A stretch of DNA of 37,460 nt from a virus (taxonomy: Duplodnaviria > Caudoviricetes), in the IMG/VR virus record IMGVR_UViG_3300031454_000259, positions 1-37,460 of that record, one strand, 5' to 3'. The notes under the pieces are model-generated. The model ran no database searches. It saw only the letters and a list, made by a program, of their open reading frames with translations, and was not told the origin of the DNA. A program made the translations under genes and the position numbers. Shown here one piece after another: positions 814-37,460 of the stretch (position 1 is its first letter; each line of letters opens with the position of its first letter).

Positions 814-1038
814 CTAGCGCTCCGTCAGCCTGGGCCTGTTCCGCTCCTCGATCTGCACCTCGCCGCGCGCGAACTTCCGCACGCCGTAGACCTCGTACAT
901 CTCGTAGCGCGCCGCCTCCTCGGACTCGTACTGCCGCGCGTTGCCCGGGTACGGCGTCCACCCGCGACCGCTCCGGTTCTCGCCCCACCAGTGCTTGCGC
1001 TCGCCCGGGCCCTCGCAGGTGATCACCCAGTGTCTCAC
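814..1038 (-). CDS. Small hypothetical protein (74 aa) coupled to the integrase
   Basis: Its GTG overlaps the integrase TGA (GTGA at 1035-1038). Trp/Tyr-rich, protein-like composition. Confidence 0.6.
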   Translation of the reverse strand: MRHWVITCEGPGERKHWWGENRSGRGWTPYPGNARQYESEEAARYEMYEVYGVRKFARGEVQIEERNRPRLTER

Positions 1039-2141
1039 TGCGTCCCCCTAACCCCTCGTGTGTCAGGCGCACCTGCCGAGCCAAAGGCCGCATCGACGAC
1101 CCGTCGCGTCTTCTCCGCGCTCTCCCGGAACAGGTGCGAGTACGTCTTCAACGTCTCGGTCGCGTCCTTGTGCCCGACGCGCCGGGCCACGACGACCACG
1201 CTCTCGCCGCCCTCGATGAGCATTGACACGTAGCTGTGCCGCAGGTCGTGGAAGTGCGTGCCCTTCGGCAGGCCGGCCACGCGTAGGGCGACGGTCCAGG
1301 TGCGGTGCAGGTTGCGCCGGTCGAGGCAGCCACCGCGGGTGTTCGCGAACACCAGGTTCCACGGCCCCCGCGGGTAGGCGGCGATGTGCTCGGCGAGCGC
1401 CTCGAGCACCAGGTCGGGCACCGGCACGGTGCGCCGGCTGCTCGGGGTCTTCGGCGGGCCCAGGTGCACCTCGGTGCCGGTGACGTCGACGAGCTGCTGC
1501 ACGACGTGCAGCTCGCGCCGCAGGAAGTCGATGCGGTCGACGGTGAGCCCGAGGCACTCCCCCAGCCGCAGCCCGGTGCCGCCGGCAAGCAGGATCAGCG
1601 CCCGGTACCGGAGGCCCGCCGCCTCGGCGACCGCCAGGACCTGCTCGACGGTCATCGGGTCGACGTCGCGGCGCTCGATCTCGGGCAGCCGGATCCGCCG
1701 GCATGGCGAGGCCGCCAGCATGCCGTCGAGGACGGCGCTGTTGAACACCGCGCTGAGAGTCTTGAGCACTCCGGCCACGGTGGCCGGCGCGAGCGTCTGA
1801 GCGAGGCCGGTCGCGAGGGCCTGAACGTCGCTACGGCGTACCTGGGACACCGCGCGGGCGCCGAGGGTCGGGTAGACGTGCAGGCGCAGCTGCCGCTCGA
1901 TGAGAGCGGCGCTGCCGGCTCGGTGCGGCTGGGCTGCCCGCCAGGCCTCGGCGACCTCGCGCAGCGTCGCCCTGCCGGCGGCCGCGTCGACGTAGGTGCC
2001 GCGGGCCATGTCGGCGGTGACGACGGCGGCTTGCCGGTCGGCGTCGACCTTCTTGGCGAAGTTCGCCTCGCGGCTGCGGCCGTCGGGGTCGCGCCAGCGG
2101 ACACGCCAGGCGCCGTTGTCGCGGCGCTTCACGCTAGCCAT
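1035..2141 (-). CDS. int: Tyrosine integrase
   Basis: N-terminal arm-binding-type domain (WRVRWRDPDG). Catalytic R (GLRLGE), K (PPKT), HxxR (FHDLRH), H (VGH) and Y (TYSH) all present. Confidence 0.97.
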   Translation of the reverse strand: MASVKRRDNGAWRVRWRDPDGRSREANFAKKVDADRQAAVVTADMARGTYVDAAAGRATLREVAEAWRAAQPHRAGSAALIERQLRLHVYPTLGARAVSQVRRSDVQALATGLAQTLAPATVAGVLKTLSAVFNSAVLDGMLAASPCRRIRLPEIERRDVDPMTVEQVLAVAEAAGLRYRALILLAGGTGLRLGECLGLTVDRIDFLRRELHVVQQLVDVTGTEVHLGPPKTPSSRRTVPVPDLVLEALAEHIAAYPRGPWNLVFANTRGGCLDRRNLHRTWTVALRVAGLPKGTHFHDLRHSYVSMLIEGGESVVVVARRVGHKDATETLKTYSHLFRESAEKTRRVVDAAFGSAGAPDTRGVRGTQ

Positions 2142-11158: not shown

Positions 11159-11194
11159 TTGACCTAAATCACCAACACCCTCATCTTCTATCAT
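11159..11194 (+). promoter_or_regulatory. Candidate late promoter
   Basis: TTGACC (11159-11164), 17 nt, CATCTT (11182-11187); alternative -10 TATCAT at 11189-11194. AT-rich patch upstream of the HNH/terminase operon. Confidence 0.45.
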
Positions 11195-11420
11195 GAGGCG
11201 TAGCCCCAGCGGAGAGCGAGCGAGTGGGGCAACAGCTGGGCCTTTCGGCCCGCTGCACCTCCTGACGACCCCCGCTCTGCTGGGGGGCGAGCTGTGCCAG
11301 CGGCCTGTCGTCCCCTCGGGCCCGCCGGGGTGCAGCCGGCGCACGCGCTGCGGTGGCTGGGCTGAGCGCTCCGCGCGCCCGGCCCCGGCCCCTGTCGCTG
11401 AGCAGCCGGAGGCGCCGCCC

Positions 11421-11717
11421 TTGCCCACCCGACCGCAGACCACCACCGAGCGCGGCCTCGGGCACGAGCACCAGAAGGCCCGCGTCGCCCTGCTGGCCCG
11501 ACACGTCGATGGCACGCCGTGCTGGTGGTGCGGCCAGCCGATGTACCGCAGCCAGGCGCTGGAGGCGGATCACAGCACCTCGCGGGCGAAGGGCGGCACC
11601 CGGGCCGACCGCCTCCTGCACGACCTGTGCAACCGGCAGCGCGGTGACGGCAGCCGCGACGGTGAACGCCCGGCGCTGAGCGGCGCACCGCCACGATGGA
11701 CGACGCGGGAGTGGTAA
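11421..11717 (+). CDS. Packaging-associated HNH endonuclease
   Basis: GGAGG RBS before TTG 11421. RGLGHEHQKAR, CWWCG, EADH...GG...LLHDLCN. Immediately upstream of terS. Confidence 0.85.
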   Translation: MPTRPQTTTERGLGHEHQKARVALLARHVDGTPCWWCGQPMYRSQALEADHSTSRAKGGTRADRLLHDLCNRQRGDGSRDGERPALSGAPPRWTTREW

Positions 11718-11790
11718 AAACAATGGCCCCAAAAAATCCAGCCCTATTCTTTCCTGACTCCTCGCCAGTCACCGTTTTCTCCCCCCGCGG
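11718..11790. other. Candidate cos (cohesive end) region
   Basis: Non-coding gap between HNH and terS. Dyad TGACT-CCTCGCC-AGTCA (11755-11771) flanked by an A-run upstream and TTTTCTCCCCCC downstream. Confidence 0.5.
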
Positions 11791-11828
11791 CCTGACCGGG
11801 GGTCGCGGGCGCGAGGGCGTGGCCTGAC

Positions 11829-12146
11829 GTGGGCGACCTCGAGGTGGCTACGGAGGAGGCGCTGGCGGCGGCCAGTCACCTGACGGGCATGGACTCCGGC
11901 GCCGTGAAGGCGCTCCGGACGCTGGCGCGCAAGATCGATCAGGACGAGGAGCGGTGGGCGCTGGCGCTGGCGCATGCGGCGGGGAGCAAGACGAAGCCGC
12001 CGTCCCCGGACAACGTCTCGCTCCCGACCTACCTGAAGTACTGCGAGTCGCTGGGGCTGACGCCTGCCGGGCGCCTGCGCTTCACCCCGTCGAAGGGCGC
12101 TGAGGGTGGCAAGCTCGGCCAGCTCCGCTCGGTCGCGAGCACCTGA
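11829..12146 (+). CDS. terS: Terminase small subunit
   Basis: YLKYCESLGLTPAGR (P27-like LGLTP motif), directly upstream of terL. Confidence 0.85.
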   Translation: MGDLEVATEEALAAASHLTGMDSGAVKALRTLARKIDQDEERWALALAHAAGSKTKPPSPDNVSLPTYLKYCESLGLTPAGRLRFTPSKGAEGGKLGQLRSVAST

Positions 12147-13653
12147 CCGTCTCGGCTCGGAGACCCCGCGCGTCTGGACGCCGCCGCTTCGGCCGCTGAC
12201 GCCGCAGACCTCGCTGGGCTTCGCGATGATCGACTTCGCCCGGGACGTGGTAGGCGTCCCTCTCCTGCCCTGGCAGCGGTGGCTGGCGATCCACGCGCTC
12301 GAGCTGCTGCCGGACCGGACGTTCCGCTTCCGCACCGTCGTGCTGCTCGTGGCCCGGCAGAACGGCAAGAGCACGTTCCTGCAGGTGCTGGCCCTGTTTT
12401 TCCTGTACGTGCGCGGCGTGCCGTTGGTGATCGGGACGGCTCAGAACCTCGACATCGCCGAGGAGGTCTGGCGCGGCGCGGTCGACATCGCCCGCGACGT
12501 CCCGGAGCTGGCTGCGGAGATCACGCAGGTGGTCGAGGTGAACGGCAAGAAGGCGCTGGTCCTCGCGGGTCGGCAGCGCTACAAGGTGCAGGCGGCGAAC
12601 CGCCGCGGTGGCCGTGGCCTCGCGGGTGACCTCGTGATGCTCGACGAGCTCCGCGAGCACCAGACGTGGGCGGCCTGGTCGGCGGTGTCGAAGACGACGA
12701 TGGCCCGCCCGCTCGCGATGGTGTGGGCGGTCAGCAACGCCGGCGACGCTTCAAGCGTCGTGCTGGCGCACCTGCGGGTGATCGCGCACATGGCGCTGGG
12801 CAACCCGGACGGGCTGGAGTTCCCGCCGGACGCGGCGCCGGAGGACGTCGACCTCGACGACGGCGACGAGTCGCCGGGCATCTTCGAGTGGTCGGCGGAG
12901 CCGGGCTGCAGCGTCCGGGACCCGGTCGGGCAGGCGCAGGCAAACCCGTCGCTGGGGAACACGATCACGCAGCGGGCGATCGACTCTGCGGTCCGGACGG
13001 ACCCGGAGGCGGTGCTGCGCACCGAGGTGCTGTGCCAGTGGGTGGACCGGCTGGTCCCGTCGGTGATCGACCCGCAGGTGTGGGAGGCCGCGGGCGACCC
13101 GGACTACGGGCCGCTCACCCCGGTGGCGTTCGGGTTGACGGTGGCCCCGGACCGCTCGCACACCTGGATCGGGGTCGCCGGCCGGCGCCGAGACGGGCTG
13201 GTGCAGGTCGAGGTGGCCGCTGAGGGCCCGGGGGTGGATTGGGCGGCGGACTGGCTGGTCGAGCGGGCCGAGTCGTGGGATCCGTGCGCGGTCGTGCTGG
13301 ACGGCACCGCGAAGGCCCTCGCGCAGCCGCTGCTGGCGGCCAAGGTCGACCCGGTCCTGACCACCACGCCGGATCGCGTCCAGGCGACGGTGGGTCTGTA
13401 CGACGCGCTGGGCGCCGGCCAGCTGCGGCACACCGGCGACCCAGCGCTGGCGGAAGCGGCCCGCACCGCGACGCGCCGCCATTTGGGTGACGGGTGGGTG
13501 TGGGAGGGCGAGCCCGTCGGCCCGCTGGTTGCCGTCGGGCTGGCCCGCTACGGCCTCATCGCCTTCGGCAGCAAGCGCCCGCCGCCGCCCCCGGAGTCGA
13601 TCCCGACCACCGACCACTTCCAGAGCCGCTCCGTGGCCACCGCGGGCTTCTAA
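12106..13653 (+). CDS. terL: Terminase large subunit
   Basis: LLPWQ adenine-binding motif, Walker A VARQNGKS, Walker B LVMLDELREH, SNAG coupling motif, ANPSLG. Confidence 0.95.
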   Translation: MASSASSARSRAPDRLGSETPRVWTPPLRPLTPQTSLGFAMIDFARDVVGVPLLPWQRWLAIHALELLPDRTFRFRTVVLLVARQNGKSTFLQVLALFFLYVRGVPLVIGTAQNLDIAEEVWRGAVDIARDVPELAAEITQVVEVNGKKALVLAGRQRYKVQAANRRGGRGLAGDLVMLDELREHQTWAAWSAVSKTTMARPLAMVWAVSNAGDASSVVLAHLRVIAHMALGNPDGLEFPPDAAPEDVDLDDGDESPGIFEWSAEPGCSVRDPVGQAQANPSLGNTITQRAIDSAVRTDPEAVLRTEVLCQWVDRLVPSVIDPQVWEAAGDPDYGPLTPVAFGLTVAPDRSHTWIGVAGRRRDGLVQVEVAAEGPGVDWAADWLVERAESWDPCAVVLDGTAKALAQPLLAAKVDPVLTTTPDRVQATVGLYDALGAGQLRHTGDPALAEAARTATRRHLGDGWVWEGEPVGPLVAVGLARYGLIAFGSKRPPPPPESIPTTDHFQSRSVATAGF

Positions 13654-21244: not shown

Positions 21245-24200
21245 GTGGCCCTGAACGTCGGTGTGCTGGTGGCTGAGCTCCGCCTGGACGACAAGCAGTA
21301 CCAGCGCGGCGTCGACCAGGGCGAGAAGCGGTTCTCGCGCCTCGGCTCGTTCCTGGCCGGCTCGGCGAAGGCCGTCGGGGCGGCTGGCGCCGGCGCGATC
21401 GCCGCAGCCGGCGCAGTAGGCATCAGCACAGCCGCGCAGATGGAACAGGCGAAGATCGCCTTCACGACGATGCTCGGGTCGGGGCAGAAGGCCGACGCGT
21501 TCCTGCGCGACCTGTCGGCGTTCGCGGCCAAGACGCCGTTTGAGTTCCCCGAGCTGCAGACCGCGGCGTCCTCGCTGGTGTCCGCAGGCATTGAGGCCGA
21601 CAAGGTCATCCCGATCATGACGACGCTCGGCGACGTCACGTCCGGCATGGGCACCGGCAGCGAGGGCGTGAAGCGCGCGACGGTCGCGCTGCAGCAGATG
21701 AACGCCGCCGGCCGGATCACCGGCGAGGACCTCAACCAGCTGCGCGACGCCGGCATCCCGGTCTACGACCTGCTCGCGTCCGCGACCGGCAAGAGCAAGG
21801 CCGAGGTCGTCGCGCTCGCCCAGGCCGGCAAGCTCGGCAAGACCGAGCTCGGCCAGATGATGGAGGCCCTCGAGTCCGGCAAGGGCCTGGAGCGCTTCTC
21901 CGGCCTGATGAAGGAGCAGTCGCAGTCCCTGACCGGGCTGTGGTCGACCCTCAAGGACACCTTCTCCGTCGGCATGGCTACCGCCATCGAGCCGCTGATC
22001 CCCCTGATCAAGCAGGGGCTGGGTGGCGCGTCGGACTTCCTCGCGAAGGTGCTGCCGAAGGTGGCCGTCGGGCTGACCGGGTTCGCGAACGGCCTGACCG
22101 GGCTCGGGCCGGTGCCCGGCTACACGGGCTGGCTGAACACCCTGGGCGACACCCTCAACCAGCTGTGGTCGGGGTTCACCCTCGGCAAGGACGGCCTCGA
22201 GGAGATCGGCGGCCCGCTCGAGGGCTTCGCGGCCAAGGGCTACCGGGCCCGCGAGATGCTGACCGCGGTGACCTCGGTCGCCAGCCAGTTCTTCGCGGGG
22301 CTCCGCGGCCGGGGCGAGCTGCAGGCGCTCGGCTCCGGGCTGACCGGCGTGCAGGCCGCCGGGCTCAAGGTGCGGGGCTGGCTGCAGCAGATCCCCCCGA
22401 TGTGGGACGCACTGATCGAGAAGGTCCGCTCGGCGCGGCAGGAGTTCGGCGGGGTCAGCCTGTCGACCGGCGAGGCGTCGGGCGGCATGTCCCTGCTGGG
22501 CGGCGTGATCGGCACGCTGGTGACCGTCGCCGGCGGACTGGAGCCCGTGGTCCGGGTCGCCGGCGTCGTCTTCGGCTTCCTGGCCAGCCACACCGACACG
22601 CTCGCGAAGTACATGCCGCTGCTCATCGGCGCCTTCATCGCCTACAAGGCGGCGCAGGCCGCGGCGAACATCGCGGCGATCGCGGCCGTGCCTGTGCAGG
22701 CCGCGCAGATCGCGAGCAACTTCGCGCTCGCTGCAGCGCTGCGCGCGCACGCCGCGGCCCTGGGCTACGAGCGCGTCGGGATGCTCACCCGGATCGGGAC
22801 CTTCATCAGGAGCACCGCCGTCACGATCGGCCACACGATCGCGCTCGCAGCGTTGCGCGTCGGCATCCTGCTCACCTCCGGCGCGATCCACGCGATGACC
22901 GCGGCTCAGTGGCTGCTCACCAGGGCGATGAGCATGAGCCCGATCGGCAAGGTCATCACGCTGATCTCGCTGCTGGTGGGTGGGCTGGTCGTGGCCTACA
23001 AGAACAGCGAGACGTTCCGGCGCATCGTCGACGGCGCGTTCCGGGCGGTCTCCGACGCCGGCCGGTTCATGTGGAACGACGTCCTCAAGCCCGTCTTCCG
23101 CACAATGCTCGGCGTCTGGCTGTCCGCCGCTGACGGCATCATCGGGGCTGCCAGCCGTGTCGCGCGGGCCCTGGGCATGGACGGCCTGGCCGACAAGCTC
23201 GACGCGGCCAAGGGCGAGCTCCGCGACTTCAAGGACTCGGCGATGCGCTCGCTCGACATCCCCGACCAGAGCGTCACCGTGACCGCCTTCGGCAAGCTGG
23301 TGCTGCCCGCCGGCTTCACCTCCCGCGACGCCGCGTCGTTCGCCCGGCGCGACGCCGCCATGGCGAACCGCCAGAACCGCGCGACCGGCGGACCGATCAA
23401 GGGCGCAGGCACCGGGACGTCGGACAGCATCCCGGCGATCGGCCCGGGCGGCGCCCAGTACGCGCTCAGCGACGACGAGCACGTGTGGACGGCTGAGGAG
23501 GTCCGCAAGGTCGGCGGGCACGGCAACATGCTGGCGCTGCGCGAGCAGGTCCGCCGGCTCGCCGACGGTGGCCCGGTCCTGTCGGTCCGCGCCGCCGGCC
23601 GCACCGGCAACCTGCGGCAGGGCGCGCAGACGCTCAGCGACCGGCAGGCCGCGCAGATGCGCAACCTCGGCCAGTTCGCCATCAACGGCGGCGCCGCGGC
23701 CGTAACACGGGGCTACGCGGCCTCCGTCGCGGCGACGGCTCGTGCCGCGGCGCCATCGGCGTCGAGCGCCGGCCGGGGCAACATCGACGCGGAGCTGCTG
23801 CGCCGCTTCGACCTGTTCAACCGGTCGGTCGGCGGTGCCCTGCGCGTCGTGTCCGGCTACCGGTCCTCCGCCAAGCAGGCGGCGCTGTACGCGGCGTACC
23901 TCAACGGCACCGGCAACCTCGCCGCCCGCCCGGGCAGCTCGAACCACGAGAAGTCCCCGGCGCGGGCGATCGACTACGGCCCGGCGTCGTGGGCCAGGAC
24001 CGCCGGCGCCTACCGCTTCGGCCTCGCGGCCCCGGTCCGGTCCGAGCCGTGGCACCTCGAGCGGGCGTACGACCGGGGCGGCGAGGCCCGCGGGCCCGGC
24101 TGGATGCGCAAGGCCACGCTCCGCCCGGAGCGGGTGCTGTCGCCGCGCCAGACGACGGCCTACGAGCGGCACATCGCTCTGCTCGAGCGCGACGGCAGCA

Positions 24201-24355
24201 CGTCGTCCGGGCCGGTGACGCTGAGCCGAGAGTCGCTCCTGGACCTGGCGCAGGCCATCAACGGCCGACCGGCGGTCCTCACCGTCGACGGTGAGGTCCT
24301 CGCCGAGCTCGGTGAGCGCAAGCGCCGCCGGCAGCTGGCGCAGGCCGGCCTGTGA
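21245..24355 (+). CDS. Tape measure protein with C-terminal M15 (VanY-like) peptidase
   Basis: RBS GAGAGGGG before GTG 21245. FAAKTPFEFPEL, GRITGEDLNQL, hydrophobic central region, SGYRS...SNH...AID...EPWH. Confidence 0.93.
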   Translation: MALNVGVLVAELRLDDKQYQRGVDQGEKRFSRLGSFLAGSAKAVGAAGAGAIAAAGAVGISTAAQMEQAKIAFTTMLGSGQKADAFLRDLSAFAAKTPFEFPELQTAASSLVSAGIEADKVIPIMTTLGDVTSGMGTGSEGVKRATVALQQMNAAGRITGEDLNQLRDAGIPVYDLLASATGKSKAEVVALAQAGKLGKTELGQMMEALESGKGLERFSGLMKEQSQSLTGLWSTLKDTFSVGMATAIEPLIPLIKQGLGGASDFLAKVLPKVAVGLTGFANGLTGLGPVPGYTGWLNTLGDTLNQLWSGFTLGKDGLEEIGGPLEGFAAKGYRAREMLTAVTSVASQFFAGLRGRGELQALGSGLTGVQAAGLKVRGWLQQIPPMWDALIEKVRSARQEFGGVSLSTGEASGGMSLLGGVIGTLVTVAGGLEPVVRVAGVVFGFLASHTDTLAKYMPLLIGAFIAYKAAQAAANIAAIAAVPVQAAQIASNFALAAALRAHAAALGYERVGMLTRIGTFIRSTAVTIGHTIALAALRVGILLTSGAIHAMTAAQWLLTRAMSMSPIGKVITLISLLVGGLVVAYKNSETFRRIVDGAFRAVSDAGRFMWNDVLKPVFRTMLGVWLSAADGIIGAASRVARALGMDGLADKLDAAKGELRDFKDSAMRSLDIPDQSVTVTAFGKLVLPAGFTSRDAASFARRDAAMANRQNRATGGPIKGAGTGTSDSIPAIGPGGAQYALSDDEHVWTAEEVRKVGGHGNMLALREQVRRLADGGPVLSVRAAGRTGNLRQGAQTLSDRQAAQMRNLGQFAINGGAAAVTRGYAASVAATARAAAPSASSAGRGNIDAELLRRFDLFNRSVGGALRVVSGYRSSAKQAALYAAYLNGTGNLAARPGSSNHEKSPARAIDYGPASWARTAGAYRFGLAAPVRSEPWHLERAYDRGGEARGPGWMRKATLRPERVLSPRQTTAYERHIALLERDGSTSSGPVTLSRESLLDLAQAINGRPAVLTVDGEVLAELGERKRRRQLAQAGL

Positions 24356-27560: not shown

Positions 27561-28160
27561 GTGGCCGTGCGCATCGTGAACGACGTCAAGCACTACGAGT
27601 TCGGCATCGCCACGTTCGTCTTCGAGAAGCCCGACGGCACGGTCGGCCTCGACAAGGACAAGGCGCTCACGCTGTACGCCAGCGAGACGAGCCCCGACGC
27701 GCCGATCGCGCTCGGCGCCGACCGGCTGCCCCTGACCGCGCCCAGGACCAACCAGTCCGGACAGAGCCCGTCCCTGTGGTCGCCGCAGTTCGACACGGTC
27801 TTCGCCGACGCCGGTGCCGGCCGGCTCCCGCTGGTCTGCCTCGACTTCGCCGAGGCGATCAACGACGTCGCCGCGACCGCCGCGTCGCTGGCTGCCGCCA
27901 GCCTGGAGGACCGCCTGCAGAAGATCGAGGCGGACGTCGCCGGCAAGTCCATCGGCCGGCTGGCCCTCGGGCAGATGCCCGAGGGACTGGCCGTCGTCGT
28001 CGACTACGAGAAGGGCACGCACGGCGCCGCCCCGAACAGCTGGCCCACTGCCCGGCCGACAACCCGCCCCGACATGCCGGTCTTCACCATCGGGCCGCTG
28101 CCGCACCCCGCATGGCGCCTGACGGGCGACCAGGAGCTCCGCCCGGAGACCACGGCGTGA
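27561..28160 (+). CDS. Minor tail/adaptor protein
   Basis: Coupled operon gene; C-terminal WPTARP...VFTIG..P.W...GD. Confidence 0.65.
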   Translation: MAVRIVNDVKHYEFGIATFVFEKPDGTVGLDKDKALTLYASETSPDAPIALGADRLPLTAPRTNQSGQSPSLWSPQFDTVFADAGAGRLPLVCLDFAEAINDVAATAASLAAASLEDRLQKIEADVAGKSIGRLALGQMPEGLAVVVDYEKGTHGAAPNSWPTARPTTRPDMPVFTIGPLPHPAWRLTGDQELRPETTA

Positions 28161-30997
28161 GGTTCTACCGCCTCATGGCGGACCGCACCAGCCGGCTGCA
28201 CCGGCTGCGTCGGCTGTCAGCCGGTGCGGTCGTCTCGCCGTACGCCTACCTGCGGGGCGTCAACGCAGCCGGCGGGGAGTTCGGGGTCAACCACAACAAC
28301 CCGGCGGACACGACCGACCCGGCGACCCTGCCTGGCCGCCTCGACAGCGACGCCAGCTTCGCGTTCTACGCCGCGCGCGGGCACAAGGCCGTCCGGCTGC
28401 CGTTCCTGCTCGAGAAGGTCCAGCCGCTCCCCGGCGGCCCGCTGGACATGGGCTACATCGACGGCACGCTGTCCCCGGCCGTGCGGTCCGGGACGAGCCG
28501 CGGCATGGTCGTGATCCTCGACATGCACAACTACGCGCGGCGCAAGGGCGCGGGCTCGTCGAGCACCACCGGCGGGCTGCCGACCGGCTTCCGGGCGACG
28601 TTCAACTGCGACACGCTCGCGGACAAGCAGCAGTGGGCGCAGGCCGGCGGTACGCACGTCGTCATCCAGGCGCTGTGGTCGGACCTCGAGCCGACGAAGG
28701 GGACGCTGAACGCGGGCAAGCTGGCCGTGCTCAAGCAGCAGTTCGCGGACTGCGCGACCGCCGGGGTCGGTGTCATCTTCAGCTTCGCGACGCACTACAC
28801 CCCCGATTGGATCAAGTCGGGGCCGGCTGCGGCGCCCCGGTTCCAGGCCAACACCTACGCCGAGTGGGCGTCCGCGAACCACCTCGGCGACGACATCCCC
28901 GATGTGGTCTTCTCGAAGGTCGCGCGTGACGCGATCAGCGCCTTCCAGGCCCGCCTCTGGGCCGCCCTCACGGTCGCCGAGAAGGCGCTGATCCACGACG
29001 TGCGGCTCGGTGGCGGCCCGTACGGTGAGCTGCACTACCCGAGTCCGGGCGACCCCCGCCGCTGGTGGGGCAACAGCGCCCCCGCAGCGACCGGCGTCGG
29101 CCTGGCCGACGGGATGGTGAAGTGCCCGGTCTCCCCGGTGTTCACCGGCACGCCGAGCCCCGCGTACGTCGAGTGGTACCTCGACGCGTTGGTGCGCTAC
29201 ATGCTCTGGCAGATCGACCAGCTGCGCCGGCTGCTGGGGTACGCCGGCGAGACGCACATGCTGCTGCCGTCCTTCGGGCTGCGCGACAACATGGCCTACG
29301 GCGAGACCGGCTGGTCATACCAGGCCGCCGAGGGCGTCGCCTTCGAGCGGCAGATCGCCGCCTTCCGGGCCGTCGACAAGCACGTCTGGCCGCAGTGCAC
29401 GTGGGTCAACGGCGAGGACCCGGTGCCCGGCGGCATCCCGGACTCCGACCGCGCGGCGCACCGCAAGATCGGTGAGCTGGCGGTCAAGTACGGCTGCACG
29501 CAGTACTTGGCCGGCGAGAACACCGGTGGCAACGCGCAGGCCGGCTTCGATGACAACGCCGACATCGACCGCATGTTCAGCGCGGACGGGGCGTACGGCG
29601 GCGGGGGCTACAAGGGCCTGTCGTGGCTCAACTTCCCGCGCCTCGTCGGCCGGGAGGCGGGCGTGCACGCCACGCTCGCCCACCTGTCCCAGCGGATGCC
29701 GTCCCGCACGAGTGGGACGGCGGGCAGCAGCGGTCAGCACCTGGTGCTCGGCGAGCCCGGTTTTCCGCACGAGCACCTGGCCGACGTCTGGGGCCGCCTC
29801 GCCGCGATCTACAGGACCGACCCGCTGGTGCACTTCGGCTTGATGAACGAGCCGCACGACCTGCCGGCCGTGTCCGGCGCCTTCGAGGGCCGGGTCGTCT
29901 ACGCCTTCGACACCTCGGCGCAGGGCTGGGGTGGCGACGCCTGCACGGTGGCGTGGACCAGCGCGGTGAAGCGCGACGGCGCCGGCAGCCTCGCGGTCAC
30001 CGCGAACGACCTGACGAACGCCGCCAACAAGGTCTTCATCGCCAACGACTCGAACGGCAACACGATGGTCCCGGCGGCCGGGAAGACCCTGCGGGCGTGG
30101 GTCCTCGTGCCCGCCGGGGCGACCGGCGGCAACTGGCGGGCCCGGGTGCTGCTGCAGAACGGCTCCTACGCCTACCAGTCCGGCCCCGACACGGCCCTGA
30201 CGCCCGGCACGTGGGCCGAGGTGTCCTTCACTCCGCCGGACGCGCTGTGGGCCGACCACAAGGCCGTCGCGGTCCAGTTCACCGTCGACAGCCCGACCGG
30301 CACGACGCAGACCGTGCACGTCGACACGGTGCGGCAGGGCACGGTCGCGAACGCCCGCACGCCCGCGCAGAGCTGGGAGGTCCCGGCGCAGCTGTCGCTC
30401 GACGCGATCCGCGCGGCCGGCGCGAGCAACTGGGTGTGGGTCGCGGGCTACGAGTGGAGCAACGCCCGGCGGTTCTGGGACATCCACCCCACCTGGTGGA
30501 TCAAGGACCCGGTGCTGCGGTCCGGTCCGGAGGCGCACTACTACCCGGACCCGGACGGCAACGGGGTGTTCGGCGACAACGGCGACAGCTACGCGTCGGC
30601 GACCACTGCGGCGAAGGCCGCCGGCTACCCGACGCTCGAGTCGCGGGTGCGCGCCGAGCTCGGGCGCTTCCTCGACGGATGCACGGCCCGTGGCCTTCGC
30701 GGGCTCATCGGCGAGATGGGCTGGCCGAAGGCGGACGACTCGGCGCAGTGGAACGGCGCCGGCGAGCTGATCTACGACCTGTGCGACGCCGCCGGCGTCG
30801 ACGTCACCTACTGGGCGGCGGGCGAGCCGTGGGGCACCGGCTACGAGATGTCGATCTACCACGGCACCCCGCAGTCGGTCCCGACGGCGGTCGCAGCCGT
30901 CGTCGAGGCGCACCCGAGCGTCGCCGCCGGCAGCGGCACCGGCCCGACCCCCACCCCGACGGCCGACACCTACTCCGGCTACGAGCTCGGCTACTAG
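28157..30997 (+). CDS. 946-aa multi-domain glycoside hydrolase: GH5 barrel interrupted by a GH14/GH42-like barrel and a CBM-like domain
   Basis: GH5 motifs RGVN..G.EFG, VRLPF, ILDMHNY, MNEP (E 29849), EAHYY, IGEMG (E 30713), YWAAG. Insert motifs WSDLEP, HYTPDW, GGGPYGELHYPS, LAGEN. Confidence 0.8.
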   Translation: MRFYRLMADRTSRLHRLRRLSAGAVVSPYAYLRGVNAAGGEFGVNHNNPADTTDPATLPGRLDSDASFAFYAARGHKAVRLPFLLEKVQPLPGGPLDMGYIDGTLSPAVRSGTSRGMVVILDMHNYARRKGAGSSSTTGGLPTGFRATFNCDTLADKQQWAQAGGTHVVIQALWSDLEPTKGTLNAGKLAVLKQQFADCATAGVGVIFSFATHYTPDWIKSGPAAAPRFQANTYAEWASANHLGDDIPDVVFSKVARDAISAFQARLWAALTVAEKALIHDVRLGGGPYGELHYPSPGDPRRWWGNSAPAATGVGLADGMVKCPVSPVFTGTPSPAYVEWYLDALVRYMLWQIDQLRRLLGYAGETHMLLPSFGLRDNMAYGETGWSYQAAEGVAFERQIAAFRAVDKHVWPQCTWVNGEDPVPGGIPDSDRAAHRKIGELAVKYGCTQYLAGENTGGNAQAGFDDNADIDRMFSADGAYGGGGYKGLSWLNFPRLVGREAGVHATLAHLSQRMPSRTSGTAGSSGQHLVLGEPGFPHEHLADVWGRLAAIYRTDPLVHFGLMNEPHDLPAVSGAFEGRVVYAFDTSAQGWGGDACTVAWTSAVKRDGAGSLAVTANDLTNAANKVFIANDSNGNTMVPAAGKTLRAWVLVPAGATGGNWRARVLLQNGSYAYQSGPDTALTPGTWAEVSFTPPDALWADHKAVAVQFTVDSPTGTTQTVHVDTVRQGTVANARTPAQSWEVPAQLSLDAIRAAGASNWVWVAGYEWSNARRFWDIHPTWWIKDPVLRSGPEAHYYPDPDGNGVFGDNGDSYASATTAAKAAGYPTLESRVRAELGRFLDGCTARGLRGLIGEMGWPKADDSAQWNGAGELIYDLCDAAGVDVTYWAAGEPWGTGYEMSIYHGTPQSVPTAVAAVVEAHPSVAAGSGTGPTPTPTADTYSGYELGY

Positions 30998-32257: not shown

Positions 32258-34269
32258 CCCGCGTCCGCCGCCTGGGCCTGGCCGCCGCCCGCCGCCGCCC
32301 GCGGGTCGCCGCCCCTGTCGACCCGCCGCCCACGAGCCCGACCGGCCCGATCCCGCTCATGGGCGGCGTCCACCGGCACCTCGTGTGGAACCGCGAGGGC
32401 AGCAGCTTCGGCGCCATCGGGCTGGACGTGAACGCCAAGCTGCAGGCGATGAACACCGCGATCGTGCGGGTCGACACCGAGTGGTCCGGCTTCGAGCCCC
32501 GCGCGCCGATCAACGGCGTGCGCACCTTCGTCACCGACCCGTGGGCCGGCAAGCTCACCAACGGCCTCAAGGACCTCCGGGACCGCGGCATCAAGGTGAT
32601 GGTCGCCGTCAACAGCACCCCGACATGGGAGTCCGGGCACACCGGCGTCCGGGTGCTGCCCAAGGACCCCAACTCGGTCGGGCCGTTCGCGAAGTGGCTC
32701 GTCGAGACGTACAGCCCGGCCAACGGCTACGACAACATCATCGGCTTCGAGTACTACAACGAGCCGAACCTCGCGGGCTTCGACGAGCTCGGCCCCCGGC
32801 CGGCGCACTACGCCAACTGCCTCAAGGTGTTCTACGACGCGGTGAAGGCGTCGAGCAACCCGACGGCGAAGGTCATCAAGTGCGGCCAGGCCGAGAACGC
32901 CGTGTCGGCGAACGGCGCCGCCACCGACCTGCGGTTCCACTTCGACAACTTCATCTACCAGCGGGTCGCCGCGGCCGGCTGGGGCTACTTCCCGTGGGAC
33001 GTGTGGGGCACGCACTGCTACCCGGGCACGAACCCGCCGTCGGCCGTCAGCCCCGGGAACGCCTACTACCTGCTGGACCACCTGCGCTACCTGTTCGCCG
33101 AGATGGTCCGGCGCGGCGACACCTCCGACGTGTGGATCACTGAGGGCGGCTACAGCGCGCACAGCAACACGATCCCCTCGGCCCTCGGCGAGCCGCCGTC
33201 GTGGCAGGCCGGTGTGTCCGAGCAGCAGCGCGTCGACTACACGCTCGCCTACTTCGACCGGCTGCGCCGCGACTTCCCGCGGGTCAAGGCCGCGATCATG
33301 TACAACGACTGGGGCAAGGGCAACGCGCTGGCCGCGACGAGCAACGTCGACCGGCACGAGTTCGGCTACGGCCTGCTCGACCACCAGCGCGCGACGACCC
33401 TCCCGATCTACTCGGCGCTGCGGGGCAAGTACGCCGACCTGCACGGGCTCCAGACGACAGCGCCGACCGCGCCGCCCGAGCCGGCCCCCGCGACTTGGCC
33501 GACCGCGTACACGCGCCTGTCGAACATCGAGCCGGCCGCCGCGTTGACCGAGGTGTCCGGCATGGTGATGAGCACCCGGCACACCGACGTCGCCTACGTG
33601 CACGACGACAGCAGCACCAACCACGTCGAGATGGTCAACGTCCGGACCGGCAAGCGCCTCGCGACGATCACTCTGGCGGGTGTGCCGCAGGGCGACTGGG
33701 AGGACATCACCCGCGGGCCCAACGGGACCCTGCTCGTCGGCGACATCGGCGACAACGCCCGGAACAGGACCAACCAGCGGCTCTACGGCTTCCCGGAGCC
33801 GACCACGATCGCCAACGTCACCGTCACCCCGACGATCTACCCCGTCCGCTTCTCCGACGGCGTCGGCCAGGACTGCGAGAGCCTGCTGTGCGACCCGGTC
33901 ACCGGCCGCTGCTTCCTCGCCTCCAAGCGCACGCAGGACGAGCTCAACGCCGGGCTGGTCGCCAAGTGGTACGAGGGGCCGACGTCGCTCAGCACCAGCG
34001 GCAACGTCTTCACCCTGACGTCGCGCAAGCACCCCGGCAACCAGTTCGGCGGCGACTGGGCGCCCGACGGGCAGACCTACGTGCTGCAGCACTACCTGTC
34101 CGCGCGGGTCTACGACCGCAACGGCGTCGAGCTGAAGCGGTCGCCGTACAGCCAGGCCGACCTCGTGCAGGCCGAGTCCGTCTGCTTCGTGCCCGGGCAG
34201 GTCGGCGCGCTCGTCTCCACCGAGACGACCGCGACGACCGGCCCGCCGATCTTCTACCTGCCGCTGTGA
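32254..34269 (+). CDS. Clan GH-A hydrolase (GH39/GH5-like) plus C-terminal beta-propeller
   Basis: GTGA overlap. WSGFEP, TPTW, FEYYNEPN (E 32761), THCY, VWITEGG (E 33142). Propeller motifs EVSG, DWEDI, VGDIGDN, DCES, QAES. Confidence 0.8.
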   Translation: MTRVRRLGLAAARRRPRVAAPVDPPPTSPTGPIPLMGGVHRHLVWNREGSSFGAIGLDVNAKLQAMNTAIVRVDTEWSGFEPRAPINGVRTFVTDPWAGKLTNGLKDLRDRGIKVMVAVNSTPTWESGHTGVRVLPKDPNSVGPFAKWLVETYSPANGYDNIIGFEYYNEPNLAGFDELGPRPAHYANCLKVFYDAVKASSNPTAKVIKCGQAENAVSANGAATDLRFHFDNFIYQRVAAAGWGYFPWDVWGTHCYPGTNPPSAVSPGNAYYLLDHLRYLFAEMVRRGDTSDVWITEGGYSAHSNTIPSALGEPPSWQAGVSEQQRVDYTLAYFDRLRRDFPRVKAAIMYNDWGKGNALAATSNVDRHEFGYGLLDHQRATTLPIYSALRGKYADLHGLQTTAPTAPPEPAPATWPTAYTRLSNIEPAAALTEVSGMVMSTRHTDVAYVHDDSSTNHVEMVNVRTGKRLATITLAGVPQGDWEDITRGPNGTLLVGDIGDNARNRTNQRLYGFPEPTTIANVTVTPTIYPVRFSDGVGQDCESLLCDPVTGRCFLASKRTQDELNAGLVAKWYEGPTSLSTSGNVFTLTSRKHPGNQFGGDWAPDGQTYVLQHYLSARVYDRNGVELKRSPYSQADLVQAESVCFVPGQVGALVSTETTATTGPPIFYLPL

Positions 34270-34291: not shown

Positions 34292-34468
34292 ATGACGATG
34301 CACCTGGGCGCCTTCACCGGCGCCCCCGCCCCCGCCCCCGTCCTGCCACTCACCCCCGTCCTGCCACTCACCGCCGCGCAGATCACCGCGGTCCGCAGGC
34401 TCGCCGCGACCGCCACCTGCCCGGGCTACATCCGTAGCGCGTTCGCCAACGTGCTGTCGGTGGCGTGA
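34292..34468 (+). CDS. 58-aa hypothetical protein (absent from the ORF track)
   Basis: RBS GAGGAG before ATG 34292; stop overlaps the start of the next gene. Confidence 0.55.
   Translation: MTMHLGAFTGAPAPAPVLPLTPVLPLTAAQITAVRRLAATATCPGYIRSAFANVLSVA
34335..34370. repeat. Perfect 18-bp tandem duplication CCCCCGTCCTGCCACTCA
   Basis: Copies at 34335-34352 and 34353-34370, in frame (PVLPLT x2). Confidence 0.9.
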
Positions 34469-34824
34469 TGCTCAGCGAGTCGGTGTCCGATCTCGCGCGC
34501 ACCCTCGTCGTCATCTTGTCCGGCGGCGCGTTGGGTGTGCTCGTCGTGGCCTTCAACGTGACGGTGAAGACCTACCGGGAGGACCCGCGCCCCGTGCACG
34601 CCGAGCTGCTGGGCACAGGCCTCGCCGCACTGGGGCTAGCCGGCCTGATCGTGATCAACGCTGCCCGTTCGATCGAGCGCATCGGGAACCCTGCCCCGAC
34701 GTGGCACCTGTTCGCCTCGCTGCTCGCCCTCGTGGTGCTGCTCGCTGGCCTCGTATGGGTCGCCCGCTTCAACTGGAAGGCCCGGATCGATCGGGCAGCC
34801 AAGCGAACGGTCTTGGGCGAGTGA
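34465..34824 (+). CDS. Three-TM membrane protein (holin-like; start 34465 or 34468)
   Basis: Three hydrophobic segments and a basic C-terminus; upstream of the endolysin. Confidence 0.7.
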   Translation: MMLSESVSDLARTLVVILSGGALGVLVVAFNVTVKTYREDPRPVHAELLGTGLAALGLAGLIVINAARSIERIGNPAPTWHLFASLLALVVLLAGLVWVARFNWKARIDRAAKRTVLGE

Positions 34825-35174
34825 GCCCGGAACAGATCACAGCCCTGGTGGCGGGTCTCATCGCGATGCTCGGCGCGGTCGTAACTGGCTACTCCAAGCT
34901 GAGCGAGACCCGGACCGCTCGGGCTAAGCGCGAGCGCGAGGAAGAGTTGGCTGACCGGCGGGACTTCGTGCCGCGGGCCGACGTCGAGGCGATGCAGAAA
35001 CGTCACGACGCGCAGCTCGCCGCGATGCAGGAGCGCTGCGACCGCCAGATCGAAGCTGTGCGCGCCGACCTACGGCGGCGAGAGGAAGAGATCGCCGAGC
35101 TGCGCCACCTGATCGGAAAGATCATGGAGCGGCCGGCCGGCTCAAAGGACCGGCGCAGCGACACGCACGGCTGA
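34821..35174 (+). CDS. Single-TM plus coiled-coil lysis accessory membrane protein
   Basis: GTGA overlap; ITALVAGLIAMLGAVVTGY followed by a charged coiled coil. Confidence 0.75.
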   Translation: MSPEQITALVAGLIAMLGAVVTGYSKLSETRTARAKREREEELADRRDFVPRADVEAMQKRHDAQLAAMQERCDRQIEAVRADLRRREEEIAELRHLIGKIMERPAGSKDRRSDTHG

Positions 35175-35228: not shown

Positions 35229-36092
35229 GTGGCTCTGCCATACCTGATCAAGAACGCGCCCGCACGGTCGCAGTTCCGGTCCCCGCGTCGTTCGCGCCCG
35301 AGCGGCCTGACCGTCCTGCACACCGCCGAGTCGGTGATGGACACCGTCGGGCCCGACACCGGAGCCGAGAACGTCGCCAACTTCATCCGCACCCGGCGCG
35401 AGGCCGGCTCCTACCACGACCTCGTGGACAGCGACAGCGCCCTCCAGCTCGTGCGGTACGGCGACGAGGCGTACCACGACGGGACGGGCAGCAACGCCTG
35501 GTCCCTGTCGATCTCGTGGGCGCTCGCCGCCGCGGACTGGCCGAAGCTCACCGCAGAGCGCCGCGACGCCTTCCTGCGACAGGGCGCCGTCGCGTTCCGC
35601 CGGCAGCAGGCGTGGCTGACCAGCCACGACTACCCGACGACCCCGCTGCGGCGGCTCACGAAGGCCCAGTCCGACGCCGGCCTGGCCGGCTTCATCAAGC
35701 ACGGCGACCGGGACCCCGGTCGCCGCTCCGACCCGGGCATGCGCTTCCCGTGGGAGCGCTGGTTCGAGCTGTGCGCCCCCACCCCCGCGCCCCCGGCCGC
35801 GCCCACCCCGCCCCTGACGTACACGGAGGTCAACGTGCCCAAGCTCCCCCAGCTCCAGGTCGGATCGCGCGGCGAGGACGTGCAGACGCTGCAGAGCCTG
35901 CTCGTCGCCCGGCGCCCGGCGCTGCACGCCAAGCTCGCCCGCACCCCCAGCGCCCTCGCCGCCTGGGTCGACGGCATCCTCGGCGACGGCACCGCCAAGG
36001 TGCTCCGCGAGTTCCAGAACGACGCGGACGTCCCCGTCACCGGCAAGACCGACGCGGCGACCTGGGCCAAGCTCCTGCGCGTGCGCGAGTGA
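35229..36092 (+). CDS. Endolysin: Amidase_2 plus C-terminal peptidoglycan-binding domain
   Basis: RBS GGGAGG. VLHTAES, GSYH, EAYH, KH...RSDPG.RFPW; GSRGEDVQTLQ...DGILG..T...FQ...TW. Confidence 0.93.
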   Translation: MALPYLIKNAPARSQFRSPRRSRPSGLTVLHTAESVMDTVGPDTGAENVANFIRTRREAGSYHDLVDSDSALQLVRYGDEAYHDGTGSNAWSLSISWALAAADWPKLTAERRDAFLRQGAVAFRRQQAWLTSHDYPTTPLRRLTKAQSDAGLAGFIKHGDRDPGRRSDPGMRFPWERWFELCAPTPAPPAAPTPPLTYTEVNVPKLPQLQVGSRGEDVQTLQSLLVARRPALHAKLARTPSALAAWVDGILGDGTAKVLREFQNDADVPVTGKTDAATWAKLLRVRE

Positions 36093-36916
36093 GCGCCCGC
36101 CGGTCGCTGCACTTCGGCGCGAACTACCCGGGCACGTCGGCGGAGCTCGCCGGGTGCGTGAACGACGCCGAGGACTGGGCGCTCGCCGCGCACGGCCTGG
36201 GCTACCTGCCCGCGCTGCACCGCGAGCCGACCCGCGAGACGCTGCTGAAGCAGCTCACCGACGCCGTCACGGGCCTGCGCTACCGCGACCGGCTCCTCGT
36301 CACCTACAGCGGCCACGGCACCTGGGTGCCCGACCGGGACGGCGACGAGCCCGACGGCCGCGACGAGGCGCTGGTGCCCGTCGACTACCGCACCGCCGGC
36401 CTGGTCCTCGACGACCACCTGCACGCGATCTGGCAGCAGGTGCCGTTCGGCGCCCGGGTGGTCTTCGTGTCCGACTCCTGCCACAGCGGCAGCGTCAGTC
36501 GGTTCATGCAGCCGCGCGCCACCCCGGTCGTCGCCTACGGCGTGCACAGGGACCTCAACCGCGCCCGGTTCCTCTCACCGATCGAGGTCCTGCCATGGGG
36601 CAGTGATGTCGTCCGGATCGAGCGGGCCGCAGCGCTCCCCGTCACCGGCACGCCCCGCCCCTCCCGCGTCGCCCTGCTCTCCGGCTGCCGCGACGACGAG
36701 GTGTCCTACGACGCCCACATCGGCGGGCGCCCGCGCGGTGCGGCGTCGTGGGCGTACCTCGATGCGCTGCAGGTGCTGGCCGGCTCGGGCCGCCCCAGCC
36801 CGTCGCTGCGGACCTGGCACGCCGCCGCGGCGGACATCATCAGCCGCAGCCCCTACTCGCAGCAGCACCCGCAGCTGCAGGCGAGCACCTGGCAGCAGCG
36901 CACGTGGACGCTGTAA
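36089..36916 (+). CDS. Metacaspase (peptidase C14, caspase family), 275 aa
   Basis: GTG 36089 overlaps the endolysin TGA. GANY...LAGCVNDA, YSGHG (His codon 36314), DRDGDEPDGRDEALVPVD, SDSCHSGS (Cys codon 36479), p10 motifs LLSGCRDDEVSYDA and GAAS. Confidence 0.93.
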   Translation: MSARRSLHFGANYPGTSAELAGCVNDAEDWALAAHGLGYLPALHREPTRETLLKQLTDAVTGLRYRDRLLVTYSGHGTWVPDRDGDEPDGRDEALVPVDYRTAGLVLDDHLHAIWQQVPFGARVVFVSDSCHSGSVSRFMQPRATPVVAYGVHRDLNRARFLSPIEVLPWGSDVVRIERAAALPVTGTPRPSRVALLSGCRDDEVSYDAHIGGRPRGAASWAYLDALQVLAGSGRPSPSLRTWHAAAADIISRSPYSQQHPQLQASTWQQRTWTL

Positions 36917-37209
36917 CCCGCGCGCCGGCCGCTGAGCGGCCGTGCCAGCTCTACGGGCCGCACTACCCCGCGGTGGTCATCACCGAAGGCCACCACCGCC
37001 ACCCCGCCTACATGCAGAACGAGGTGTACGGCCAGATCCGCGACACCGAGCTGGCGTGGCTTTGCTCGAACTGCCATGAGGCCGTGCACGCGTGGCTCTA
37101 CCACCTCACCGGCAAGCGCCGGCAGCCCGACCCCATCCCGCCGCCGCGCGCCCGCGCTGAGGCCGAACGCACCTACGCCTGGTACCTCACCGCTCAGGAG
37201 GCCCCGTGA
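36904..37209 (+). CDS. HNH-like (beta-beta-alpha-Me) protein, about 101 aa
   Basis: EGHHRHP...LAWLCSNCHEAVH. Likely GTG start at 36904 overlapping the metacaspase end; GTGA overlap with the next gene. Confidence 0.65.
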   Translation: MDAVTRAPAAERPCQLYGPHYPAVVITEGHHRHPAYMQNEVYGQIRDTELAWLCSNCHEAVHAWLYHLTGKRRQPDPIPPPRARAEAERTYAWYLTAQEAP

Positions 37210-37460
37210 AGTCCACCGCCCAGGGCACGTTCCTCACCGTCGTCGGCTTCCTCGGCATGACGCTGCTCCTGTGCGTCGTCGCGATCGCGCTGCTCGCCGG
37301 CTACGACAAGGACGTCCCGACGATCCTCGAGACCCTCGCCGTCGCCGCGCTCGGCACCATCGGGGCGCTGCTCGCCAAGACACCCAACGACAGCACCCCG
37401 CAGGCTGTGCAGGTCATCAACCGGGCGGCCAACCCGGTGAAGGTCGAGCAGGCATCGTGA
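37206..37460 (+). CDS. Two-TM holin-like membrane protein
   Basis: RBS AGGAGG; two hydrophobic helices and a polar tail; last gene of the lysis cassette in this window. Confidence 0.7.
   Translation: MKSTAQGTFLTVVGFLGMTLLLCVVAIALLAGYDKDVPTILETLAVAALGTIGALLAKTPNDSTPQAVQVINRAANPVKVEQAS

Follow-up and report, generated by a model that had tools for sequence, protein, structure and literature searches.

Phage lysis is usually explained by holins, endolysins and spanins, to which some actinophages add lipid esterases, and a protease is not included in this textbook scheme. In actinophage cassettes that carry extra genes (Gp1-LysA and LysB of Ms6), the additional products are a chaperone and a lipid esterase. 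Among bacterial caspase-like enzymes, the orthocaspase MaOC1 of Microcystis is a p20-p10 enzyme that is Arg/Lys-specific, Ca2+-independent and self-processing. Orthocaspases of this kind are encoded by cells and frequently have additional C-terminal domains. The subject of this report is a metacaspase gene carried by a provirus of the Caudoviricetes (Duplodnaviria), IMG/VR record IMGVR_UViG_3300031454_000259, whose whole length of 37,460 bases is called the window here. Like the Ms6-type cassettes, the provirus has an accessory gene between its endolysin and holin-like genes, but here the accessory gene encodes a protease. The product is an intact, stand-alone metacaspase, and its gene is a member of the tightly overlapping lysis operon. 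We tentatively favour the reading that it is made late and serves as an accessory protease of the lysis phase; this is held at somewhat short of an even chance, and the substrate and the trigger are conjectural.

Clan CD proteases tied to cell death during infection also include the type IV Thoeris caspase, the gasdermin-activating proteases and Csx29 of Craspase. The family of the provirus protein, like these immune proteases, pairs with membrane-damaging effectors (patatin, lipase). The immune proteases, however, are host-encoded and have TIR, CRISPR RNA or gasdermin partners, whereas the provirus gene is phage-encoded, coupled to an endolysin and without such partners. Metacaspases of giant eukaryotic viruses (Fadolivirus, Clandestinovirus, medusavirus) are likewise virus-encoded versions of the fold, but their hosts are eukaryotic. 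The preliminary description of this DNA, which was made from the letters alone, knew of no caspase-type lysis gene, and none was found in the published literature that was searched. Eight phage-related metacaspase operons are reported for Clostridium botulinum (PMC3501461), five viral operational taxonomic units are listed with metacaspase-1 among their auxiliary viral genes (bioRxiv 10.64898/2026.01.21.700432), the caspase-like effector of type IV Thoeris is on the host side (PMC13069673), and the only related protein given for a mycobacteriophage is a CHAT-domain protein (10.1101/2023.05.30.542743).

The gene had been described as an intact C14 protease of 275 residues beginning at a GTG, and the present results bear this out. 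The open reading frame (ORF) at 36089-36916 (+) is open for 275 codons with no internal stop. Residues 9-267 of 275 match Pfam PF00656 (Peptidase_C14) with E 3e-22; the score of 79.9 bits exceeds the curated threshold of 21.4, and the match spans positions 7-227 of the 233 in the profile. The GTG start is supported because the N-terminus aligns with the N-termini of stand-alone homologues. The C14 domain begins at residue 9, and the prodomain of a strict type I metacaspase (Pro/Gln-rich or zinc finger) is not present. No transmembrane (TM) segment, signal sequence, wall-binding domain or second Pfam domain was predicted in the protein by Pfam and a Kyte-Doolittle scan, in agreement with the claim of a complete p20 plus p10 unit without other domains. 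Structure prediction had been proposed as a check alongside the hidden Markov model search with PF00656, and both support the assignment. The AlphaFold (AF2) model has a mean predicted local distance difference test score (pLDDT) of 87.4 and a predicted template modelling score (pTM) of 0.87, and is confident except at residues 136-154. As modelled, the protein has the caspase-haemoglobinase fold. The top Foldseek matches are the metacaspases AtMC9 (E 8e-19), AtMC4, 3BIJ, Yca1 and TbMCA2, and MALT1 and the caspases rank after them. When a profile of 30 homologues was compared with the Protein Data Bank (PDB), 3BIJ (GSU0716) was found at 3.3e-49 and Yca1 at 1.5e-46, together with Candida MCA1, AtMC4, TbMCA2 and AtMC9. 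The protein matches no PHROG family. The caspase model of PADLOC matches it weakly and partially (E 0.0017), and the match to an NCBIfam caspase subfamily is likewise weak.

The following sites in the gene are referred to below.

36314..36316 (+): codon of the catalytic His76, in the motif SGHG (His in 154/155 family domains)
36479..36481 (+): codon of the catalytic Cys131, in the motif DSCHSG (Cys in 155/155 family domains)
36494..36550 (+): Arg-rich loop, residues 136-154, between the p20-like and p10-like parts (pLDDT <50; the alignment is rich in insertions and deletions here)

The His76/Cys131 dyad had been recognized in the preliminary description, and both residues are invariant in the alignment of the protein with its homologues (A1). 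The Asp-rich loop pointed out there is DRDGDEPDGRDE and occupies residues 82-93, and its acidic residues are nearly invariant in the family. Asp26, Asp129 and Asp208 are kept in 154, 155 and 150 of the 155 family domains, respectively; these positions presumably line the S1 pocket, by comparison with TbMCA2. Since the fold, the dyad, the acidic loop and these presumed S1-pocket residues match those of eukaryotic metacaspases, cleavage after Arg or Lys is predicted. The eukaryotic enzymes in question, of types I and II (Yca1, 4F6O; TbMCA2, 4AF8; AtMC4, 6W8S; AtMC9, 9N3E), have the fold, the His-Cys dyad, the acidic loop after the His and the Asp residues in common with the provirus protein. They differ from it in that the provirus protein has no prodomain or long p20-p10 linker, has Arg138 where Yca1 has Asp, and is found in a viral context. 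It had also been stated that such enzymes are usually Ca2+-activated, and this is the claim that may not apply here. Asp92/Glu93 and Asp108/Asp109, acidic positions that we presume to be Ca2+ ligands, are conserved in the family. Arg138 aligns with the Asp that follows the catalytic Cys motif in Yca1, and the residue is Arg or Lys in 151/155 family sequences; because of this replacement the Ca2+ dependence is uncertain, and the classical dependence of metacaspases may not hold. By analogy with MaOC1, the provirus metacaspase is predicted to be Arg/Lys-specific, Ca2+-independent and self-processing, and the Arg-rich loop at residues 136-154 is, by conjecture, a candidate autoprocessing site.

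Among solved structures the best sequence match is GSU0716 of Geobacter sulfurreducens (3BIJ; E 3.3e-49, positions 5-245), which is also among the top fold matches. Like the provirus protein, GSU0716 stands alone as a single domain without a prodomain, is comparable in length (285 aa) and has the basic residue that follows the Cys motif. It differs in that it is chromosomal, comes from structural genomics, has no assigned function and is neither phage-borne nor next to a lysin.

The metacaspase gene lies in an operon of six genes on the same strand, given here with the evidence for each.

34465..34824 (+): holin-like membrane protein, 119 aa, three predicted TM segments, opening the operon (gene call from G+C content at third codon positions, GC3; Kyte-Doolittle scan)
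34821..35174 (+): 117 aa, one TM segment near the N-terminus followed by a charged tail of coiled-coil-like character (gene call; Kyte-Doolittle scan)
35229..36092 (+): endolysin with a PGRP/Amidase_2-type catalytic domain and a C-terminal PG_binding_1 domain (phrog_12609 endolysin, 7.5e-21; PF01471, 5.9e-09)
36089..36916 (+): stand-alone metacaspase, 275 aa (PF00656, 3e-22; AF2; Foldseek)
36904..37209 (+): HNH-like small protein, 101 aa (gene call; phrog_740 HNH endonuclease, E 7e-4 on a longer ORF)
37206..37460 (+): 84-aa protein with two predicted TM segments, class-II-holin-like (gene call; TM scan)

The genes are separated by a 4-nt overlap and a 54-base gap, and then by overlaps of 4, 13 and 4 nt. 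The GTG start of the metacaspase lies in a GTGA that includes the endolysin stop codon (36090-36092), and the 84-aa gene likewise starts in a GTGA overlap with the HNH-like gene. The metacaspase gene is co-oriented and contiguous with the holin-like and endolysin genes, so that the earlier statement that it is embedded in a lysis cassette stands. Its GC3 is 0.967, compared with 0.962 for the endolysin, and a frame plot switches frame at about 36089. The codon style had been said to match the flanking phage genes. The relative synonymous codon usage does correlate with that of the phage late genes (0.99), but the correlation with the flanking non-phage genes is almost as close (0.98), and codon usage therefore cannot separate a phage origin from a host origin. 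No promoter or terminator was found in a scan of the lysis region, which is uninformative at such a G+C content. A search for sequencing runs that contain this DNA turned up one, probably the source metagenome, and none of RNA. A complex prediction for the metacaspase (alignment A1) and the endolysin (A3) gave a score of 0.01, which counts neither way.

The other members of the operon are identified to different degrees. The 119-aa holin-like protein has no match in Pfam or PHROG. The 117-aa coiled-coil protein has weak PHROG matches to a holin (E 1.6e-3) and an Rz-like spanin (E 5.7e-3), obtained with the longer ORF 34701-35174. Homologues of the endolysin bear PF01510, and one of them is annotated as an N-acetylmuramoyl-L-alanine amidase. 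The Arg-rich stretch at the N-terminus of the endolysin was considered as a cleavable propeptide; this was ruled out, as the stretch is conserved across homologues and lies within the catalytic domain. HNH genes adjoin the caspase on some viral contigs (e.g. L022 and L024). A mobile caspase-plus-HNH cassette was ruled out, the HNH-like protein of the provirus being unrelated to the HNH genes beside the L022 and L024 caspases.

The order of these genes raises the question of whether the metacaspase could itself be a further lysin in its own right. In that case it would pass with the endolysin from the cytoplasm through the holin lesion and cut peptide links of the wall or a protein surface layer, and it would occupy the slot that LysB has in mycobacteriophages. 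Its place between the endolysin and the downstream holin-like gene with two TM segments mirrors the order lysA-lysB-holin, and the endolysin has a single catalytic domain. The metacaspase, however, has no wall-binding domain and no signal sequence, and we know of no clan CD peptidase that cuts peptidoglycan. This explanation is considered very improbable.

An accessory protease of the lysis phase could act as follows. Metacaspase and endolysin would be translated jointly. As an unprocessed zymogen the metacaspase would be harmless in the cytoplasm, the Arg-rich loop at residues 136-154 being the likely site of autoprocessing. It would become effective once the holin breaches the membrane, and the active protease would then cut protein targets after Arg or Lys. 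Candidate targets are envelope or wall-associated proteins of the host, or the lysis proteins of the phage itself. The particular roles put forward in the preliminary description, namely a lysis timer triggered by ion flux, the hijacking of a host death pathway and the destruction of host defence proteins, are conjectural.

The family is large. More than 1160 homologues were found at E<=1e-5 among 8000 candidates scored; most of them stand alone, have 250-290 aa and are 40-48% identical. At E<=1e-30, 179 clusters (50% identity) match, and in species-representative genomes an estimated ~2100 stored stretches across many phyla carry the family pattern. Among 401 genomes of the class to which a Dactylosporangium genome (G001) belongs there were 8 matches at E<=1e-20, all of <=46% identity. 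In GenBank phage records a tblastn match was obtained in 1 of 50,697, a 485-kb uncultured phage (30% identity). All 25 matches at E<=1e-3 among predicted viral structures come from giant eukaryotic or insect viruses; no tailed phage is among these 25, and the first phage row has E 0.02. Scans of IMG/VR gave 54 contigs and then, with the clade alignment A4, 11 further and more distant loci (L190-L200). The closest relatives of the provirus protein, P0003-P0006, are 48-65% identical to it and are absent from the viral collection. Two other members of the family have unusual architectures: P0223 (622 aa) is split after about residue 80 by an intein with an HNH endonuclease, and in P0210 (582 aa) the metacaspase is fused to a GDSL lipase.

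Phylogenetic trees were built with FastTree (166 rows) and IQ-TREE (quick, LG+C20; 76 rows) after 14 partial domains had been removed, and they are mutually consistent. The 76-row tree contains all 19 rows of the clade of the provirus protein plus 57 representatives of other groups, taken from the 166 FastTree rows, and the trees include rows from an unpublished genome, G002 (L098; its caspase neighbours are TetR and ABC-transporter genes), which enters no other result. The provirus metacaspase groups with P0003-P0006 (Shimodaira-Hasegawa-like approximate likelihood ratio test, SH-aLRT, 98-99) and next with the metagenome locus L065 (SH-aLRT 89). The 19-row clade (SH-aLRT 99) holds only the viral loci L003, L005, L007, L018 and L031, the metagenome loci L058 and L065, and proteins without context. 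PDB sequence look-ups of the unannotated neighbours in L058 and L065 returned nothing useful. The viral-only make-up of this clade and the conservation of the catalytic residues suggest that phages keep the metacaspase as a working enzyme.

The gene contexts of the homologues were called with a home-made rule (longest ORFs, with GC3 contrast for high-GC DNA). The 270 neighbours that lie within three genes of the caspase in 52 viral loci were annotated, and two further loci in which no caspase gene was called were left out. In 4 of these 52 loci a gene for a lysin or lysozyme is the direct neighbour of the caspase gene. In L007 the order is tail fibre, caspase, Amidase_2-like endolysin, a protein with two TM segments and a coiled-coil protein with one. 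The other three are outside the 19-row clade: in L014 an NlpC/P60-like lysin is followed by the caspase with a 4-nt overlap, in L021, a myovirus of 28% GC, the caspase is followed by a muramidase, next to a tail sheath gene, and in L051 a tail lysozyme precedes the caspase. The metagenome locus L065 has Amidase_3, a TM protein and the caspase, joined by 4-nt overlaps, and then two genes without annotation and an integrase. The lysins that adjoin caspases do not match each other. As the caspase gene is tightly coupled in four lysis operons that are independent and differ in their lysins, the protease appears to be made together with the lysis proteins in these phages. Three of the eight members of the 19-row clade whose context is known are inside lysis operons (the provirus, L007 and L065). 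In addition, small TM proteins are more frequent within two genes of viral caspases (33/194, 17.0%, vs 63/581, 10.8%; odds ratio 1.69, Fisher p 0.03), and they are not enriched near the caspase in genome loci (4.7% vs 7.1%). In both L037 (5708-7004) and L038 (5705-7526) a protein with three TM segments lies upstream of the caspase, and in L037 one with two TM segments lies downstream; no lysin was detected within three genes of the caspase in either.

Several of these results weigh against a role in lysis. The other 48 of the 52 viral loci have no lysin or lysozyme within three genes, and 4/52 is about what random placement would give for a 60-gene phage and a 3-gene window, with direct adjacency in weak excess. 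Without the provirus itself the count of lysis operons in the clade is 2/7. Post hoc, back-of-envelope binomials give p ~0.01 for 3/8 and ~0.08 for 2/7, on the rough assumption that a gene of a 60-gene phage has a 7% chance of being no more than two genes away from the endolysin. Lysin adjacency takes six changes on the tree for six rows and so is not clustered. The enrichment of TM proteins is borderline; it depends on a hydropathy rule and on home-made gene calls that are crude. Viral homologues also lie by terminase or portal genes (5/52). Others adjoin RusA, SSB or DNA methylase genes or, in very large phages, stand in a block of sigma-factor and phosphoesterase genes, and these settings do not point to lysis. 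The expectation that homologues would recur next to lysins thus stands for five loci with non-homologous lysins (L007, L014, L021, L051 and L065), but not for the greater part of the viral loci. A one-off capture of a host gene, which the preliminary description had raised, fits poorly with the viral-only clade and the recurring lysins, although most homologues on viral contigs lack the synteny with a lysis cassette.

Accessory genes are known to settle just downstream of lysis cassettes, and for this reason position alone is weak evidence. The main rival is that the metacaspase is an accessory gene parked after the lysis genes, with a task unconnected with lysis. Its product would cleave proteins of the host to take over the cell or to counter its defences, for instance by cutting or pre-empting caspase/CHAT immune systems. 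Conservation of the catalytic residues in every clade is in keeping with this, as is the wide variation in position among viruses (terminase/portal, early genes, the sigma-factor regions of jumbo phages). So is the company kept by close cellular homologues, which pair with a giant protein in an arrangement resembling a conflict system. A protein of 1,800-1,980 aa adjoins the caspase in 34/80 genome loci and in 6 metagenome loci. It has DUF7379 repeats, an LCAT/DUF676-type lipase, a CHAT protease and TPR-S, and it lies downstream of the caspase except in L150, where it is upstream and on the other strand. PADLOC has no model for it. This cellular two-gene system, with a metacaspase of ~264 aa, is seen at L099:5998-12256, L096, L113, L130, L136, L172 and about 30 more loci, mostly in Proteobacteria. 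Since the cellular homologues belong to such a conflict-like pair, a phage copy could interfere with caspase-CHAT systems. The caspases with the giant partner, however, form a clade of their own (99), separate from the viral clade. Moreover, four high- or mid-GC phages have the gene in translational coupling within their lysis operons; this coupling implies late expression, which is late for counter-defence. On balance a parked accessory protease is possible but on the unlikely side.

A different partner is found in another group of viral homologues. A patatin-like phospholipase lies directly upstream of the caspase in L013:2700-4815, L009:4851-6795, L030:4188-6792 and L067:6943-8801. The four patatins are mutually close (E ~1e-100) and resemble the phospholipase effectors of CBASS, and their caspases form one clade, which is the sister group of the 19-row clade (support 90). 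The envelope-attacking partners of the family as a whole are four kinds of peptidoglycan hydrolase, the patatin, an alpha/beta-hydrolase lipase and a GDSL lipase. This pairing suggests a common logic of a protease plus an envelope-damaging effector. In a separate case (L011:2083-4164), the gene directly upstream of the metacaspase encodes a portal protein whose C-terminal region resembles an ADP-ribosyltransferase (phrog_3895).

The provirus that carries the gene was excised from a metagenome contig of 282 kb. Its PHROG annotation runs from the integrase through the tail genes to lysis, which is a complete temperate siphovirus layout, and the CheckV estimate of completeness for the record is 64%. 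Upstream of the lysis operon it comprises the following.

1035-2132 (-): integrase
after the integrase: regulators and replication genes
11193-13653: HNH endonuclease and large terminase
after the terminase: portal, prohead protease, scaffold and major capsid
after the capsid: connectors, major tail protein, chaperone and tape measure, 21245-24355
downstream of the tape measure: minor tail proteins, then two large GH5-domain proteins (PHROG and Pfam)

The last two proteins, at 28157-30997 and 32359-34269, are very large tail-region proteins with glycosyl hydrolase family 5 (cellulase) domains and are probably tail-fibre depolymerases. At the left edge of the provirus record a gene for a ClpP-like SDH-type serine protease (1-786; PF01972, phrog_11747) adjoins the integrase. 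The scan for tRNA genes found none within the 37,460 bases, and no direct repeat of >=19 bases that could represent att sites is shared by the integrase side and the right flank. The host is probably an actinobacterium, because the named relatives of the endolysin come from Blastococcus, Modestobacter, Pseudokineococcus and Nocardioides.

On the right, the record stops exactly at the stop codon of the last lysis-operon gene, that of the 84-aa protein, whose stop ends on the final base of the provirus. The parent contig beyond this point is non-phage and holds a truncated SocA/Panacea fragment, DUF5615/DUF433, a full SocA_Panacea gene, and NikA-like and GIY-YIG genes. The fragment (in L057:9553-12551) is a 73-aa N-terminal piece that resembles the start of the SocA_Panacea antitoxin gene 2.4 kb further on, and the DUF5615/DUF433 pair stands between the two. 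It may be a disrupted gene that marks the prophage junction.

The location of the metacaspase gene only about 550 bp from this end, which is adjoined by genes of toxin-antitoxin type (DUF5615/DUF433, SocA_Panacea and the truncated Panacea), is in keeping with a defence or abortive-infection effector borne by the prophage. Such a gene would be a case of lysogenic conversion, expressed in the lysogen and killing the cell upon superinfection. The viral patatin-caspase pairs, with their CBASS-type phospholipases, resemble effector modules, and type IV Thoeris offers a known case of a caspase-like effector (PMC13069673). Other observations speak against this reading. No TIR, STAND, cyclase, gasdermin or type III CRISPR partner was found in any protein of the six-gene operon or in the flank, and the match to the PADLOC caspase model is the weak and partial one given above. 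Typical morons differ from this gene, which runs in the direction of the endolysin gene, overlaps it and matches it in GC3. Homologues also occur in very large phages that are probably lytic. A defence effector is thus regarded as unlikely, and ranks after the parked accessory protease and before the second lysin.

To return to the accessory lysis-phase protease, it can be asked whether the provirus represents something more general. Metacaspases could be a recurrent and undescribed enzymatic part of phage lysis cassettes across very different hosts, produced along with the endolysin and armed when the holin fires. The protease would then cut envelope proteins or lysis regulators and add a proteolytic step to the holin-endolysin scheme. 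This wider proposal is held to be doubtful. Should the gene instead be a parked accessory protease, it would still be a rare phage-borne caspase whose host targets are worth finding. If a caspase-type protease does aid or time the burst, this would be a new and directly testable step in phage lysis, and it would give the stand-alone metacaspases that are widespread in bacteria their first assigned role. It would also tie phage lysis to bacterial caspase-based cell death, which has so far been studied from the host side only. As cellular suicide systems couple this protease family to lipases, phage lysis and the caspase-driven death of bacteria would share an effector logic.

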